Assembly (NCBI GenBank): GCA_039589115.1
Contig: JBDHHZ010000001.1
Location: forward strand, 9,283 to 73,282
Direction of reading: 5' to 3'
DNA: 64,000 nt
Source of the DNA: Gemmatimonadota bacterium
GTDB taxonomy: Bacteria; Gemmatimonadota; Gemmatimonadetes; Palauibacterales; KS3-K002
The position numbers and the translations under genes are program-made. Below the pieces are notes generated by a model. It was not told the DNA's origin, did no database searches, and was given only the letters and a program-made list of their open reading frames with translations. Position 1 is the first letter of the stretch. The number at the start of each line of letters is the position of its first letter. Of this stretch, positions 57,794-64,000 are shown piece after piece.

Positions 57794-60700
57794 TCAGAAC
57801 GTCGGCCCAAAGGACACCGACCAGATGCCGCGCTTCTTGCCGGGGCGATCGAGGGGCAAGGTCCAGTCGAAGCGGAACACGTTGTAGAAGATGTTGATCC
57901 TGAGGCCCGCCCCGAACGCTGACAGCGGCGCCCGCACGTCGACTGGATCGACGCCGGGCGGTCGCGACCAGATCAGCTGGTCGAACGAGTTGAACGCCAC
58001 GCCGATGTCGTAGAAGAGAACTCCGTGTATGGGCGGCAGGCCCAGCGGCACGAATCCGAAGTCCAGGTAATTGAAGATGGGGAAGCGGAACTCGCCGCTG
58101 GCGAATGCGATGCTGCTGCCGATCAACTGGTCACGCACAGGGCAGAGCGTCGTGACCAGCTCGGCCACTTCGGCCACCGATTGGGCACACTCGGCGGCTG
58201 TGAACGAGCCCCCGTCGTAGCCTCTGAGGTAGTAGGGGCCGCCCCAATAGAGGCGGAACTGGTGCTCGCCCGGTCCCGACCGTGAATAGCTTGTCAGGCG
58301 TGTGGCGAAGGTGAACTGCCCGCCGAAGTTGAAGTAGTTTCGGAAATCGACGGTGATGTCGTTGATCTCGACGTCCCCGAAGTAGCGCCCGATCCCTACC
58401 CGGTAGCGACGGCCCGAAATGGGACCCGTGAATCCGTACAGCGAGTTGTCGAAGACTATCGCGACCGACGGACCTGCAAACACCAGATTCTCCAGCCGCA
58501 GCGTCGTGCGGTCGCTCGTACCCACCTCTCGTGTCGCGATCCTGTCCACGATGCTGTCCCGGCTGATGTAGACGCCGACAGCGGACAGCTCGATTCGTTG
58601 GAACTCGTTGAACGGGTAATGAATGTCCGTGCTCAGCGTCCTGTAGACGTCACGAATGAACCTGTCCTCGTAGAACAGTTGGTCCGTTGCGTCTAGCGAT
58701 GGGATTGTCCCCCGGAAACGGTAGAGTGGGAACTGCTGGTAGGCCATCGATACGTTGGCGCGCTCACGCATGTACGCATACTGGGTCAGGATGTAGGCAT
58801 CTTCGAACGACCCTGCGATCTGGCCCCAGAGCAACAGGTTGTGATCACCGAGGATGTCCGACATCAGGATATAGGACCCACCGTAGACGCCGCTGCCGAA
58901 GTGGCTACCTACCTGCGCACCTATTACAGGCTGGCCGATGACATCCGGCGTGAGCTTCAACTCGTAGTCGCGTTTCTCGAACTGAGCGGTATCGGGCAGC
59001 CCGCGCTGGGCGTCGGCCAGCAGCTCCGCCACCGTCAGTTCGCGCCGCGTTACGACTTCCTCGGCCGCCGGCTTCGCCGCCGACGGACGGAAGCCGCCGT
59101 CGATCCTGTAGTAAGACTGACTGCGTGCACCTGAGGCCAGGTACTGCGGCTTCTGACCTTCGCCGTCAGACACGATCTCGCTACCGTCCTCACCGTCCTC
59201 GACTTCGGCCTCAACCACCAAGACGGGCTCGGGTGGCATCTCTACGGGCCAGGCCACGGCCCGCGGGTCATCGATCACATAGATGTTGTAGCCGGCCCCC
59301 TCGAAGTAAGTGAGGGCGAGACGGTCGGCCTGGGTGGCCCACGAGATTGCCGGGCTGAGCGGCACGATCCCGGTTACCCCCGACAGGAAGTCGGTCACCT
59401 GATAGAGCCGATCCTCCGGTAGCGAATAAATGAAGACGTTGTTGACGCCGCTGCGATCGGAGACGAAGGCGATCGCGTCGCCATCCGGGGACCAGGCCGG
59501 ATTGATGTTCTTGCTCTCTCCCTGGTAGGGCAGGATCTCCACATCGCGCCGGCCCACGTTGTAGAGGGCGATACGGAAATTGCCGAAGACCAGCTCCTCG
59601 AAATCGGTGTCCGCCCCGCGATCGGTGGCCAACGCGATGTAGCGGCCGTCCGGCGACCAGGCGGGATGGAGGTCGGCATACTTGTCGTTCGTCAGCTGTT
59701 GCAGGCGACCGCCGTCCACATCGATGACGTACAGATCGCTTAAGCCGCCTTTCAGTCCGGTGAAGGCAATGCGCATCCCGTCCGGCGAGAAGGTCGGGTT
59801 CTGGATGCCGTCGAGCTCGACGACGACCTTGCGGGCGACCCGGCGCTTCGCGACCTCATAGACGTAGAGCGCGTCGCGGCCGCCAACCTGCGCCACGAAA
59901 GTCAGGTAGCGGCCGTCGTTGGACCAGGCGGCAGACGAATTGATGAAGCGCAACGACTTGAAGTCGGGCGAGCGCGCGGCCTCGATCAGCCGCGTTATGA
60001 CCTTTCCGTCTTCCGCCGACGCCAGCCAGAGGTCGAAGAACGAGTACAGCCGGTTCCCTCGATCGGAGAGGTAGACGATCTGCCGGCCGTCCGGCGCCAG
60101 CGCCGGCGCCAGGTAGGAGGCGAACTCACCTGTCCCCGGCCTGAACGAGTGACGCGTAAGCCTGCTGCCCGTCTCATCGGCGCCGGCGAACCTGGCGACT
60201 TCCGGCAGGTAAGCCGTCCGTACCGTCTCGATCCAGTCGTCGGACAGCTCCTGAACGGTCACACCCAGCGTGATCTGTACCGCGCCCTCGAGTCCGAGTC
60301 GCATCGCCCGCTGCAGCAGCAGACCGATCTTCTGGTCGCCGTATTTGGCGCCTATGAACGACCAGAGCGACTGCCCGAACCGGTAAGACAAGTAGTCGTT
60401 GTAAAGCGACATCTCCTCTATGGTCCGCAGATAGCCCGACAGCACGGCATCGCGTAGCCACGCATGCGTGTGCGTGTCGAGCCTACCGATGGCCAGGTAC
60501 TCGGCCATCCCCTCCACGAACCAGAGCGGCGGAACGTACTCGAGCGGGTTGAGCTGGCCCGTCAGGCCACGCGCGATGACGTCGTACTGAAAGGCGTGCA
60601 CCAACTCGTGCGTCAGTACGTGCTCGAAGTCGGCGTAGGAACCTGTGAACGGCAGGATGACCCGGCGCTTCGCGAACTCCGTGACGCCGCCCGTCCCCTC

Positions 60701-61054
60701 GGAGATGAAGCCCTGGAGTGCGTTCGTCTGCTGGAACTCGCTGTGTGAGGCGTAGAGGATGATCGGCTTCCGGTCATCGAACTCGTGTCCGAGGATGCGA
60801 CTCAGCCGGTTGTAGGAGCGCTCGGCCATCCGCGCGGCATCGAGCGCAGCTTCACGCTCACTCGTGTAGTAGTAGATGTCGAAGTGGGCCGTGCGCAGGA
60901 TTTGGAAATCGAAGACCTGGTGCTGAAGCTTGTTGCGGCCGAACTGAGCCTGCAGCGGCTCGGCGGTCGCGACCGGCAGCAGGACGAGGAACCACGCTAG
61001 CCGCCATGCCAATCTGAGCGGCGGGACAGCGAAGCTCTTCGCACGCTGCATCAT
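57794..61054 (-). CDS. large outer-membrane protein: signal peptide, HExxH metallopeptidase-like domain, TolB/PD40 beta-propeller repeats, Omp85-like C-terminus ending in Phe
   Basis: Signal peptide ...LLPVATAEPLQAQ; HELVHAFQYD zinc-metallopeptidase-like motif; PD40 repeats (SPDGRYIALATDRGAD, WSPDGDAIAFVSDRSGVNNVFIYSL, LAPDGRQIVYLSDRGNRLY); C-terminus ...FYNVFRFDWTLPLDRPGKKRGIWSVSFGPTF. Confidence 0.75.
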   Translation of the reverse strand: MMQRAKSFAVPPLRLAWRLAWFLVLLPVATAEPLQAQFGRNKLQHQVFDFQILRTAHFDIYYYTSEREAALDAARMAERSYNRLSRILGHEFDDRKPIILYASHSEFQQTNALQGFISEGTGGVTEFAKRRVILPFTGSYADFEHVLTHELVHAFQYDVIARGLTGQLNPLEYVPPLWFVEGMAEYLAIGRLDTHTHAWLRDAVLSGYLRTIEEMSLYNDYLSYRFGQSLWSFIGAKYGDQKIGLLLQRAMRLGLEGAVQITLGVTVQELSDDWIETVRTAYLPEVARFAGADETGSRLTRHSFRPGTGEFASYLAPALAPDGRQIVYLSDRGNRLYSFFDLWLASAEDGKVITRLIEAARSPDFKSLRFINSSAAWSNDGRYLTFVAQVGGRDALYVYEVAKRRVARKVVVELDGIQNPTFSPDGMRIAFTGLKGGLSDLYVIDVDGGRLQQLTNDKYADLHPAWSPDGRYIALATDRGADTDFEELVFGNFRIALYNVGRRDVEILPYQGESKNINPAWSPDGDAIAFVSDRSGVNNVFIYSLPEDRLYQVTDFLSGVTGIVPLSPAISWATQADRLALTYFEGAGYNIYVIDDPRAVAWPVEMPPEPVLVVEAEVEDGEDGSEIVSDGEGQKPQYLASGARSQSYYRIDGGFRPSAAKPAAEEVVTRRELTVAELLADAQRGLPDTAQFEKRDYELKLTPDVIGQPVIGAQVGSHFGSGVYGGSYILMSDILGDHNLLLWGQIAGSFEDAYILTQYAYMRERANVSMAYQQFPLYRFRGTIPSLDATDQLFYEDRFIRDVYRTLSTDIHYPFNEFQRIELSAVGVYISRDSIVDRIATREVGTSDRTTLRLENLVFAGPSVAIVFDNSLYGFTGPISGRRYRVGIGRYFGDVEINDITVDFRNYFNFGGQFTFATRLTSYSRSGPGEHQFRLYWGGPYYLRGYDGGSFTAAECAQSVAEVAELVTTLCPVRDQLIGSSIAFASGEFRFPIFNYLDFGFVPLGLPPIHGVLFYDIGVAFNSFDQLIWSRPPGVDPVDVRAPLSAFGAGLRINIFYNVFRFDWTLPLDRPGKKRGIWSVSFGPTF

Positions 61055-61452
61055 GTCGGTTCGGGCTCCTCGATGAGCATCGTCGGCGCGTCGCCCCAGA
61101 GCCGCTCCAGTTGGTAGAACTCGCGCACGACGGGGTGAAATACGTGCAAGACGAGGTCGATGTAATCTACCAGTACCCAGCGGGCGGCTCGCTCACCCTC
61201 CACACCAGACGAACGTACACCATCGCGGGCCAATCCTTCCACCACGTGTTCGGCCACGGCGCGGACATGCACTTCGGAGTCGCCGGAGGCTATGAGGAAG
61301 AAATCGGTTGCGTCGGATATCCCGCGCAGGTCGAGAACGACTAGCTCGCGCGCGTTGCGCTCCTGGCAGAGCTCTACGGCGCGCTGGACCGTCGGTGGGA
61401 GATCGGCCGGGCGCGGCACGGCACCGGAGAACGCGAACTCGGGTTTGGACAT
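61051..61452 (-). CDS. rsfS: ribosome silencing factor RsfS (Iojap-like)
   Basis: ATG at 61452 (MSKPEFAFSGAV...); core VVLDLRGISDATDFFLIASGDS...LVDYIDLVLHVFHPVVREFYQLERLW. Confidence 0.85.
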   Translation of the reverse strand: MSKPEFAFSGAVPRPADLPPTVQRAVELCQERNARELVVLDLRGISDATDFFLIASGDSEVHVRAVAEHVVEGLARDGVRSSGVEGERAARWVLVDYIDLVLHVFHPVVREFYQLERLWGDAPTMLIEEPEPT

Positions 61453-61504
61453 ATACGGCCTTAGCGAGCTCCTCACAAGCTGAACATGTTGCTCTTTCAA
61501 CACT

Positions 61505-61655
61505 CAATATCCGACACTCAGCAACCACTGATCAAATAGATCCTCAAGGGTCAAGGGCCAAGGAACAATGACCGATGATCACAGCCAATGATCATTGGTC
61601 ATCGGACATCGGACCTTGTCACTTGGGCTTTTCCTTGGCAACTGGTTATCGAGTG
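61505..61655. promoter_or_regulatory. AT-richer intergenic region with nested inverted repeats (operator-like), upstream of rsfS
   Basis: Perfect 15-bp inverted repeat CAATATCCGACACTC (61505..61519) / GAGTGTCGGATATTG (61641..61655). Inside: CCGATGATCA ... CCAATGATCATTGG ... TGGTCATCGG. GC is well below the window average. Confidence 0.5.
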
Positions 61656-61688
61656 TCGGATATTGATTACTGGTTCTGTCCTCTCATG

Positions 61689-63494
61689 TCACTGGGCCTG
61701 GTAGAACACCCCCCAGGCTCCAGGGCCCAGGTGTGCCGCGATGACGTTGGCGGCCGGACGGACGAGCACCTCGTCCGCGTCGAACTCGCGGCCCACGATG
61801 CCGGCCAGCTCCTCGGCCATACCTTCGCAACCCACGTGCGCCACCGCCATCCTCAAGCGCCCGGGCTCCGCTGGCAGACTCTGCCGCACCAGCTCGATGA
61901 CCTTGGGGACGAGCGCCTCACTGCCGCGCACATGGCCTGCCGGCACGAGGAAACCCTCCTCGTCCAGGCTCAGCACCGGCTTCAGATCGAGCAAGCCTCC
62001 CAGAAAGGCCTTGGCTTTGCCGACCCGTCCCGAGCGCTGCAAGTGCGTCAGCGTGTCTACCGTGATGAACAGGCCGGACCGCGGTCGGAGACGCTCGAGC
62101 TCTCCGACGATCTCCTCTATCCCACAGCCCTCTTCTGCAAGCTCGGCGGCCCGCAGCACCTGAAACCCGAGCCCGAGCGACGCGGCTCGCGAGTCGAAGA
62201 CGCGGACCACGGCGCCCTCGAAGCGGGAAGCGGCGGCCTGCGCCTGTCCCAGCGTCCCCGATAGGGCGCCCCCGACGAAGATCCCGAGGACATCACCGGC
62301 GTGCTCGGCGGCGCGCCTGTACCCTTCGATCAGCTGCGCCGGCGATGGTTGTGATGTCGTCGGCTGCGGGTGATCTGGATCGAGGAGCCGTTCGAGAAAC
62401 TCCTCGTGCGTGATGTCCACCTGATCCAAGAACGAGCGCTCGCCGAAAATCGCAGTGAGCGGCACGACCGTTATGTCGTGCTCGATGATGAGTTCCGGCG
62501 GGAGATCACATGTCGAATCGGTGACCACTGCCAGTTTACGTTTCGCCAAGCGGCGCCGGGTCTCGTGCTGAGCCCGCATGTCCTCCGCCTTCACGCATTC
62601 CACAGAGCAGCCCAACGCGGCCAACGCTCGCTCTACTTCCGCCGGCTGGTCGGTGTGTATGTGGATCTTCGCGACGGAGTGTGCGCGTGTGACGATCAGC
62701 GAGCCGCCCAGCTCCCTCACCGCCTCTTGCATGGCCCGCTGTTCGGGCGGGTCTCCGCGTACGATGAACTCCGAGCAGAAACGGAAGGCGCGGCCGCCGT
62801 CTTCCGGGAACGCCACCTCCGCCGCCACATCCCTCATCTCCAACGCGGCACCCGGAACCTGCTTCGGGCGGGTCGTGTCGCCGTCTATCAGCCCAACCAT
62901 CCCTTCGACGAAACACACGAAGCCCTTCGCGCCAGCGTCCACCACGTTCGCCTCGCGCAATACGGACAGCAGGTCGGGCGTGCGCTTCAGAGAGTCGCGC
63001 GCCGCCCCCAGCCAGCGCCGCGCCAACTCCTCGAGACCGTGTACGATGAGCGAGAAGCGTTCGACCTCTTCGGTGGCCTCTCTAACTACGGTGAGAATGG
63101 TGCCTTCGATAGGCTGATCGACGGCCTGGTAGAGGGAATTGGAGGCGCGGCGCATCGCGGTGGCCAGATCCTCCGGCCCGGCCCGGTCCCGGCCCTCGAG
63201 ACCTTCGGCGAAACCGAGGAAGTAGTGGGACAGCATCATGCCGGAGTTGCCGCGCGCACCCAGCACCCCGGCTTCGGCTATCCGCGAGGCCATCCCGGCC
63301 ACCGAACCGTCCTCGACTCCATCAACTGCGTCCGCGATCGCGCGCAGCGTCAAGGCGAGGTTGGTGCCGGTGTCGCCGTCAGGAACTGGGAAGACGTTGA
63401 TGCGATCGAGCTCGTCGCGGTGCTCGTAGACGCGCTCCGAGCCCGCCAGAAACAGGCGTTTGAGGCGCCGCCCGTCGCAGTACGCGATACCCAG
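61689..63494 (-). CDS. DAK2 (DhaL-like) domain fused to a DegV-like domain (FakA/YloV-like fatty-acid kinase family); the start codon is non-canonical or unresolved
   Basis: N-terminal DAK2 motifs (DELDRINVFPVPDGDTGTNLAL, GARGNSGMMLSHYF) and C-terminal DegV motifs (KLAVVTDSTCDLP, TSQPSP). The conserved DGDTGTN segment lies upstream of the first in-frame ATG/GTG/TTG (the TTG at 63353). The frame is open back to the rplI stop region. Confidence 0.65.
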   Translation of the reverse strand: MGIAYCDGRRLKRLFLAGSERVYEHRDELDRINVFPVPDGDTGTNLALTLRAIADAVDGVEDGSVAGMASRIAEAGVLGARGNSGMMLSHYFLGFAEGLEGRDRAGPEDLATAMRRASNSLYQAVDQPIEGTILTVVREATEEVERFSLIVHGLEELARRWLGAARDSLKRTPDLLSVLREANVVDAGAKGFVCFVEGMVGLIDGDTTRPKQVPGAALEMRDVAAEVAFPEDGGRAFRFCSEFIVRGDPPEQRAMQEAVRELGGSLIVTRAHSVAKIHIHTDQPAEVERALAALGCSVECVKAEDMRAQHETRRRLAKRKLAVVTDSTCDLPPELIIEHDITVVPLTAIFGERSFLDQVDITHEEFLERLLDPDHPQPTTSQPSPAQLIEGYRRAAEHAGDVLGIFVGGALSGTLGQAQAAASRFEGAVVRVFDSRAASLGLGFQVLRAAELAEEGCGIEEIVGELERLRPRSGLFITVDTLTHLQRSGRVGKAKAFLGGLLDLKPVLSLDEEGFLVPAGHVRGSEALVPKVIELVRQSLPAEPGRLRMAVAHVGCEGMAEELAGIVGREFDADEVLVRPAANVIAAHLGPGAWGVFYQAQ

Positions 63495-63496
63495 GC

Positions 63497-63961
63497 CTAC
63501 TCTCCCTCCTCCTTGATCACCCAGACCTTCACCGACGCCTCCACCTCCGGGTACAGCCTGATCGGAACGGCGTAGACGCCCAGAGCTTTGATCGGCTCGA
63601 CCAGCTGCACGTGCCGGGCCAGTACGTCGTGACCCTGCTCGCCGAGCTGCGCGGCGATGTCCCGCGGTCCCACCGAGCCGTACAACTTGCCCTCGTCAGC
63701 GGCCAGCATCGAGAAGGTGATCGATGCACCTTCCAGGCGCTCCGCTAGCGCCCGGGCGTCGCCCCGGTCCCGCTCTTCCGCCATCAGGGCGGCCGCACGC
63801 TCCTGGTCTAGCAGCCGGCGACTCTGATCCGTAGCCGGATAAGCGAGTCCGTGCGGCAGCAGATAGTTGCGGGCATAGCCCCGCTTCACGCTGACAACAT
63901 CGCCAACATCGCCGAGGTTGTCGACCTTTCTTCTCAGGATCACATCTTGACTCTTACCCAC
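63497..63961 (-). CDS. rplI: 50S ribosomal protein L9
   Basis: 154-aa L9 sequence (VILRRKVDNLGDVGDVVSVKRGYARNYLLPHGLA...); ends ...KVWVIKEEGE. Confidence 0.92.
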   Translation of the reverse strand: MGKSQDVILRRKVDNLGDVGDVVSVKRGYARNYLLPHGLAYPATDQSRRLLDQERAAALMAEERDRGDARALAERLEGASITFSMLAADEGKLYGSVGPRDIAAQLGEQGHDVLARHVQLVEPIKALGVYAVPIRLYPEVEASVKVWVIKEEGE

Positions 63962-64000
63962 TGTGCCACTCCAGATCTAGAATAGTCCTTCCGAATCGTC

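Follow-up and report, generated by a model that had tools for sequence, protein, structure and literature searches.

In a 64,000-nucleotide stretch of the genome of a Gemmatimonadota bacterium (assembly GCA_039589115.1, contig JBDHHZ010000001.1, positions 9,283 to 73,282; hereafter the window), a gene for a fused fatty-acid kinase, here termed fak, very probably uses a CTG at 63494-63492 on the minus strand as its initiation codon. This CTG lies 2 nt past the TAG stop (63499-63497) of rplI, the gene for ribosomal protein L9, and is in frame with the kinase. It is likely, on the combined comparative evidence, that fak is translated from a CUG start that is probably coupled to rplI and has been selected to be weak. 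Counted from the CTG, as are all fak residue numbers given here, the coding sequence extends over 61689..63494 (minus strand) and specifies 601 amino acids followed by a TGA stop (61691-61689); the assignment is based on the translation and on matches in Pfam, NCBIfam and the PDB. The upstream gene rplI occupies 63497..63961 on the same strand, begins with GTG and was identified from the list of open reading frames (ORFs) and by the Pfam domains Ribosomal_L9_N and Ribosomal_L9_C.

An earlier sequence-only reading of the window, the first-pass annotation, had stated that fak has no canonical start codon upstream of its DGDTGTN motif and that its open frame runs back to the rplI stop. The first part of this statement stands, while the second does not: the fak frame, which differs from that of rplI, is open back to a TGA at 63698-63696 within rplI, and a codon walk found no ATG, GTG or TTG in the 114 codons from this TGA to a TTG at 63353. 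That TTG (63351..63353, internal Leu48), listed as the first canonical start of the frame in both the codon walk and the ORF list, lies downstream of DGDTGTN, just as had been described. The N-terminal segment ...DELDRINVFPVPDGDTGTNLA reads in frame upstream of it, and a start at the TTG would remove N33 (63398-63396) together with D39 and D41 of the DGDTGTN motif (63360..63380). The position first given for the in-frame CTG was likewise correct. By itself, a run of 47 codons upstream of TTG 63353 without a canonical start is unremarkable; the missing start of fak gains its significance because of homology and of conservation across 34 loci. In the window the non-canonical start is specific to this gene. 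Nineteen other ORFs possess at least 13 open codons before their first canonical start, and in none of them does a Pfam match reach into the upstream region; one of the nineteen has no Pfam match, and EF-Ts begins at a normal ATG. A choice of real genes based on GC content at third codon positions (GC3) was too noisy and was not used.

The 34 clade loci consist of the window and 33 public Gemmatimonadota loci obtained by a genome scan, a metagenome scan and ten contig look-ups; NCBI, JGI and Logan are their sources. They represent Gemmatimonadota metagenome-assembled genomes (MAGs), several of which stem from Bohai Sea sediments (PMC11316326), and include four complete MAG chromosomes (CP070812, CP070722, CP070815 and CP070823). 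Protein identity of the 33 further loci to the window protein ranges from 52 to 71%. In all 34 cases rplI is situated directly upstream and a canonical start is missing at the conserved N-terminus. Two sets can be told apart, namely the 24 loci of group A, which carry the CTG at protein identities down to 52%, and the ten loci of group B (L001-L003, L005-L008, L082, L084 and L085), which are dealt with below.

The CTG holds the position of the initiator methionine. All 24 group-A loci have it at column 1 of the alignment, the place taken by ATG in sister lineages: Gemmatimonadota sisters start with M-x-I-x-Y-x-D-G (M-K/Q/R-I-A-Y-L-D-G), and the alignment of orthologous start regions envisaged by the first-pass annotation puts the CTG in the place of that Met. 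A codon-column analysis of the 21 full-length group-A sequences comprised 125 columns in which a degenerate amino acid is fully conserved, and the CTG of column 1 is the sole invariant codon among them. No single codon exceeds a share of 0.62 in the 13 other invariant-Leu columns, with CTG making up 44% of Leu usage overall. Amino-acid identity falls to 0.52 among the first 18 full-length group-A sequences and the median identity at 4-fold sites is 0.39; judged by this divergence, group A is old. The codon preceding the CTG is variable, and in 13 of the 24 loci the rplI stop stands in frame two codons before the CTG and closes the frame. A single mutation would turn CTG into TTG, GTG or ATG, and no such change has occurred in any of the 24 loci.

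Public gene calls locate the start elsewhere. The window protein is recorded as P0001 (534 aa, MASRIAEAG..., 100% identical), a truncated annotation beginning at an ATG (63291..63293), and 70 of the 71 public protein clusters of the clade are N-terminally truncated and begun at assorted internal codons, 23 of the 71 being devoid of DGDTG. These calls would fit a protein that begins at an internal canonical codon (TTG 63353 or ATG 63293) behind an untranslated upstream frame. The calls are, however, presumably automated and limited to ATG, GTG and TTG, and the annotated internal starts differ from genome to genome. Moreover, the 47 upstream codons are conserved in amino acids with synonymous variation, even where 4-fold sites are near saturation; the peptide ..GIAYCDGRRLKRLFLAGSE.. 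stays constant across the clade loci while its codons vary synonymously, and the upstream codons are therefore translated. They also align with the NCBIfam models for FakA and YloV, which begin at model positions 2-4 (fak residues 7-12), placing the protein N-terminus at or very near the CTG. As the Mg-binding residues needed for catalysis are also encoded upstream, an internal start is very improbable. Three public calls with 'M' at Leu11 (P0009, P0024 and P0057) were considered as well; each of them begins at a TTG that encodes an internal Leu, and none has lost the CTG upstream.

The first-pass annotation had also allowed for an unrecognized sequence error. An error in sequencing or assembly, or decay to a pseudogene with loss of the start, would account for the missing start codon and has nothing beyond that in its favor. 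The same feature recurs in 34 of 34 loci from independent projects and assemblers, complete chromosomes included, and the 601-codon frame is intact, with three domains well above their cut-offs and conserved catalytic residues. Given the 34 concordant loci, an error or a pseudogene is ruled out, its probability being practically nil.

A further near-cognate candidate is the third codon, ATC (Ile3, 63486..63488), for which the first-pass annotation had given 63489-63487, one nucleotide off. Translation could begin at this Ile codon (AUC or AUU in the relatives), perhaps through ribosomes that continue to scan once they have terminated on rplI. Both AUC and AUU are near-cognate codons with an activity similar to that of CUG in Escherichia coli (bioRxiv 10.1101/063800); ATC or ATT is present in 33 of the 34 clade loci, and it is the only candidate common to groups A and B. 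Still, the codon varies between ATC and ATT whereas the CTG does not vary, its distance from the Shine-Dalgarno sequence would be 13-19 nt, and the invariance of the CTG would be left unexplained. Orthologs starting at ATG, GTG or TTG conserve this Ile just as well at an internal position, so no special cause has to be invoked for its conservation. Locus L162 carries GTC (Val) in its place, and ATC can therefore not be a universal start. Initiation at the Ile codon is thus unlikely, and where the first-pass annotation had named CTG and ATC side by side as non-canonical start codons, the Met-equivalent position, the codon invariance, the GTC of L162 and the internal nature of the Ile favor the CTG.

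What the full-length frame encodes is predicted to be a single-chain Dak2-DegV fatty-acid kinase and not a canonical FakA. Hidden Markov model searches define three domains and their borders: a Dak2 (DhaL/FakA_N-like) nucleotide-binding domain at residues 36-200 (62895..63389, minus strand; PF02734, 125.4 bits, cut-off 27), a FakA-like middle domain (FakA-like_M) at residues 237-312 (62559..62786, minus strand; PF21645, 53.8 bits) with a Cys in RFCSEF and an H-x-H in KIHIHTD, and a DegV domain (FakB-type fatty-acid-binding EDD) at residues 320-599 (61698..62537, minus strand). The suggestion that a bona fide DegV is fused to the kinase module is borne out by PF02645 (263.5 bits, cut-off 27, model positions 1-278 of 280 matched), by TIGR00762 (275.3 bits on the C-terminal half, cut-off 99.7) and by structural matches. 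In the PDB, fak matches Streptococcus FakA (7w7h_A, 1.6e-43) and Thermus DegV 2dt8 (2dt8_A, 1.7e-48), its Dak2 part matches FakA_N (7rm7_A, 3.8e-36), and its DegV part also matches many FakB/DegV structures, TSQPSP being conserved with respect to 2dt8. Models built for the separate proteins stay below their cut-offs, as seen for NF038248 (FakA, 177.9 bits versus 975), TIGR03599 (YloV, 281 bits versus 396, with only model positions 2-302 of 530 matched) and the FakB1 equivalog (159 bits versus 350). A FakA_C-type domain was not found in fak by Pfam; the C-terminal half is DegV.

The residues expected of an active kinase are present. In the alignment with 7w7h_A, the NVFPVPDGDTGTN motif with N33, D39 and D41 is identical, and RFCSEF and KIHIHTD line up with YCTEIM and KVHVHTE, so that equivalents of the catalytic middle-domain residues Cys240, His282 and His284 of FakA exist in fak. 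Staphylococcus aureus FakA binds Mg2+ via N32, D38 and D40, and a D38A/D40A double mutant is inactive (PMC9136124). Going by the shared motif rather than by a displayed alignment, N33, D39 and D41 of fak would correspond to these three residues, and fak possesses them only if translation begins upstream of TTG 63353. The protein would thus join a Dak2 ATP/Mg module and the FakA middle catalytic domain to a DegV/FakB lipid domain that replaces FakA_C. Compared with the FakA plus FakB systems of Staphylococcus and Streptococcus, the N/D/D Mg ligands of Dak2, the Cys and H-x-H of the middle domain and a genuine DegV/FakB are shared, whereas the FakB-docking FakA_C is missing and FakB itself is present in cis. 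Dak2-DegV fusions as such are on record, having been reported by Erni et al. (2006) as cited in bioRxiv 10.1101/2021.02.16.431466. The Acidobacteriota/Thermoanaerobaculia orthologs in our collection (L023-L160) exhibit the same Dak2-FakA_M-DegV fusion.

The junction between rplI and fak is as peculiar as the start codon. The last five rplI codons form a Shine-Dalgarno-like run (AAGGAGGAGGGAGAG, 63500..63514, minus strand) with two overlapping AGGAGG motifs (63513-63508 and 63510-63505). A strong Shine-Dalgarno sequence made from the end of rplI had been noted in the first-pass annotation, and the predicted duplex with CACCUCCUUA, which amounts to -12.6 kcal/mol in the window and ends about 10 nt before the CTG, agrees with this. 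The distances need correction: not 9-14 nt, but 7 nt to the CTG and 13 nt to the ATC separate these codons from the purine run AAGGAGGAGGGAG (63514-63502). Across the 28 distinct clade junctions, 25 have a predicted duplex of -9 to -12.6 kcal/mol that ends 8-16 nt before the first codon; most of these reach -11 to -12.6. The match resides in a clade-specific acidic tail of L9 (..VWVIKEEGE and variants, DNA AAGGAGGA..., 63500-63520 in the window), while L9 of the Gemmatimonadales sisters L021 and L022 ends with ..VAAE or ..VVAE and lacks an acidic tail. The tail of a ribosomal protein thus appears, from these comparisons, to have been shaped by the ribosome-binding site of the gene downstream.

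Spacing is equally tight. From the rplI stop to the CTG, the 24 group-A loci have 2 nt (four loci), 3 nt (13 loci), 4 nt (six loci) or -4 nt (one locus), with the consequence that rplI and fak occupy all three relative frames. Three relative frames at such tight spacing indicate selection for proximity and exclude a conserved frameshift or read-through. This bears on the idea that L9 and the kinase are fused by recoding, via a frameshift or stop read-through where rplI ends. The fak frame of the window is indeed open across the rplI 3' end at an offset of -1. The relative frame is, however, 0, +1 or -1 depending on the genome, so that no single event could be conserved; the junction revealed neither a slippery motif nor a conserved structure downstream, and the invariance of the CTG would again be unexplained. 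With the relative frame varying among genomes, an L9-kinase fusion of this kind is ruled out and is scarcely conceivable for the window. The -4 nt case is L162 (1438-1441), the most divergent clade member (52%), in which the CTG overlaps the TGA stop of rplI as CTGA, a non-canonical counterpart of the classic 4-nt overlap ATGA.

RNAalifold gave no convincing conserved structure at the junction (-4.86 kcal/mol, covariation -0.46, one compensatory pair) and the window junction folds less well than shuffled versions of it (z = +1.3). Coupling by the unfolding of an inhibitory RNA structure is hence unsupported, no conserved structure being present at the junction. A scan for promoters and terminators between rplI and fak yielded nothing informative. 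The Rfam search of 61000-64000 returned only a sub-threshold gntR-DTE match (25.1 bits versus 63.6, E = 0.07), which lies inside rplI (63753-63831, minus strand) and was taken as a chance match.

The conserved spacing of -4 to +4 nt is consistent with translational coupling of fak to rplI termination, as the first-pass annotation had proposed, and we infer such coupling. Ribosomes finishing L9 would either unmask the fak start site or reinitiate there, thereby feeding a Shine-Dalgarno-assisted initiation at CUG 63494-63492, which would presumably be read by the initiator tRNA as formylmethionine. Situated behind the highly translated rplI, a weak start of this type would set kinase synthesis to a small fixed fraction of L9 output, and low expression may be the reason for which it was selected. 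Published work shows that for efficient termination-reinitiation the stop and start codons have to overlap or lie very close together (PMC10666635; review PMC12548453). It is conceivable, albeit rather doubtful, that kinase expression depends obligatorily on rplI-terminating ribosomes that reinitiate 2-4 nt further on at CUG (AUA in one subclade) and that mutations to ATG, GTG or TTG are removed by selection.

The subclade in question is group B, in which the junction lies about 9 nt upstream of the match start. Group B is nested within group A in the tree and has TCG (once GCT) replacing the CTG. With the CTG lost, these ten loci must use another codon, either an ATA at the rplI stop or the ATC/ATT. 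For group B, though not for the window, we slightly favor a start shifted to an ATA that is in frame and overlaps the rplI stop (GAA-TAR); the protein would then begin (M)-x-S-G-I-A-Y... The ATA arises in all 10 loci because rplI ends there with GAA-TAA or GAA-TAG, whereas four group-A loci in the same frame have GAG-TAG/TAA, giving GTA. An invariant GAA is rare at conserved Glu columns (1 of 27), AGGAGG is located 7 nt upstream of the ATA compared with 19 nt from the ATC, and the nesting inside group A also fits such a replacement. Against it, the subclade is shallow, with invariant codons in 34% of the conserved columns, and essentially a single evolutionary event is being observed; the ATC/ATT is the competing start codon in these loci.

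Outside the clade, anchored orthologs start canonically 32-37 codons before an NVFP anchor, nearly all of them at -32 or -33. One locus deviates, the Acidobacteriota-type metagenome locus L144 (1501-1620), whose N-terminal region is aberrant and lacks a canonical start where one would be expected, probably owing to a frameshift or a faulty assembly. Two Gemmatimonadales loci also follow rplI and use a canonical ATG 13 nt and a GTG 2 nt after the stop, respectively. The 70 distinct Acidobacteriota-type N-terminal DNA sequences comprise 36 with GTG, 34 with TTG and none with ATG. A preference for weak starts seems to run in this gene family. Because the CTG never became TTG, GTG or ATG and because Acidobacteriota avoid ATG, low initiation efficiency seems to have been under selection; the weakness of the start thus appears to be selected and not merely tolerated.

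Several observations weigh against a coupled CUG start as laid out above. Group B manages without the CTG, and this codon is consequently not strictly required for the gene to work. At three loci the Shine-Dalgarno duplexes are weak (-6 to -8 kcal/mol), and all duplexes were calculated with an anti-Shine-Dalgarno sequence taken as canonical rather than from the 16S rRNA of these organisms. The invariance of the CTG was assessed by comparison with the remaining columns of its own alignment, which is not a tree-aware test. Coupling by reinitiation and independent initiation driven by the Shine-Dalgarno sequence look the same at the sequence level. Finally, L161 has an additional in-frame GTG upstream of the CTG. 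This GTG precedes the CTG by four codons and overlaps the end of rplI (GTG AAT AAC GGC CTG, L161 1489-1503), and the L161 protein P0004 is the only public call that covers the true N-terminus.

CTG start codons have precedents. In E. coli, hda and yfjD start at CTG (PMC3531124). The rep gene of RepFIB plasmids combines a CTG start with a good ribosome-binding site and is under selection for low expression. Annotations routinely place its start wrongly at a GTG further downstream, and a synonymous change from CTG to CTC kills its function (PMC11983097). A published survey, as quoted in the same article, counted 20 CTG starts among about 85,000 annotated genes in model genomes, and CUG initiation reaches about 1-2% of AUG in E. 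coli (bioRxiv 10.1101/063800). With hda, yfjD and RepFIB rep, fak shares the rare CTG start, the good ribosome-binding site and the mis-annotation at a downstream canonical codon. It differs from them in that its CTG has been kept over 24 loci down to 52% identity and lies within 4 nt of a ribosomal-protein stop, with a Shine-Dalgarno sequence encoded by the rplI tail, in that one subclade has replaced the CTG, probably by AUA, and in that the start is proposed from sequence comparison. The AUU starts of infC (encoding initiation factor IF3) and pcnB are the confirmed non-canonical cases in E. coli (bioRxiv 10.1101/063800). As in fak, a conserved non-canonical start is found on a housekeeping gene; fak, however, uses CUG and not AUU, its product is an enzyme of lipid metabolism and not a translation factor, and autoregulation is not indicated. 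The stop-to-start distance of -4 to +4 nt and a Shine-Dalgarno sequence inside the upstream gene are also features of the coupled pairs trpE-trpD, trpB-trpA, rplK-rplA and galT-galK. These restart at ATG, GTG or TTG, whereas the restart codon of fak, if coupling applies, would be CUG or AUA. In the library searched, no paper was found linking Gemmatimonadota or fatty-acid kinase to rare start codons. CTG starts and Dak2-DegV fusions are thus already known; new here is, on comparative grounds, another well-supported CTG-start gene, distinguished by deep codon-level conservation, by a CTG within 4 nt of a ribosomal-protein stop and by an apparent later swap to AUA.

The gene order rplI-fak-rsfS is conserved in the clade loci and in L021 and L022, as judged from gene tables. 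In the window, rsfS, encoding the ribosome silencing factor (61051..61503, minus strand; Pfam RsfS and synteny), is the next gene downstream of fak. The spacer between the fak stop and rsfS amounts to about 185 nt, as compared with -4 to +4 nt between the rplI stop and the CTG. A 163-nt imperfect palindrome (61504-61666) resides in this spacer. It has 78-nt arms that are 72% complementary, a 7-nt loop and termini formed by AATATCCGACACTC and its inverted copy, differs in GC content from its flanks (about 0.46-0.49 versus about 0.66) and is single-copy in the window. In group-B loci the RsfS match begins within about 15 nt of the fak stop, leaving no room for such an element. The palindrome could be an insertion resembling a miniature inverted-repeat transposable element (MITE) or a large hairpin. 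Downstream of rsfS, a protein of 1086 aa is encoded at 57794-61054 (minus strand). Its relatives at the same position in L161, L165, L168 and L170 feature Peptidase_MA-like, PD40/Tricorn beta-propeller and Omp85-like regions; in L163 and L164, a SPOR-domain protein takes this place.

For work on this enzyme, the position of the start matters directly, as function prediction, structure modelling or expression from the truncated public records would be wrong. Gene finders limited to ATG, GTG and TTG would miss genes of this kind, and further cases should come to light in a screen for N-termini whose conservation reaches upstream past the first canonical start. The clade offers an unusually clean comparative case, a CUG being kept across 24 loci though a single mutation gives a canonical start, and its position behind a ribosomal-protein stop makes it a natural system for asking whether termination-reinitiation uses non-canonical restart codons. 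IF3, itself autoregulated, discriminates against non-canonical starts of the infC type, so that the output of such genes can follow the condition of the translation machinery. If fak expression indeed depends obligatorily on ribosomes terminating at rplI, fak might respond to IF3 levels as infC does, the position of fak between rplI and rsfS would be functional and not accidental, and the supply of acyl-phosphate, and with it of membrane lipid, would be hard-wired to a small fixed fraction of L9 and hence ribosome synthesis in these bacteria.

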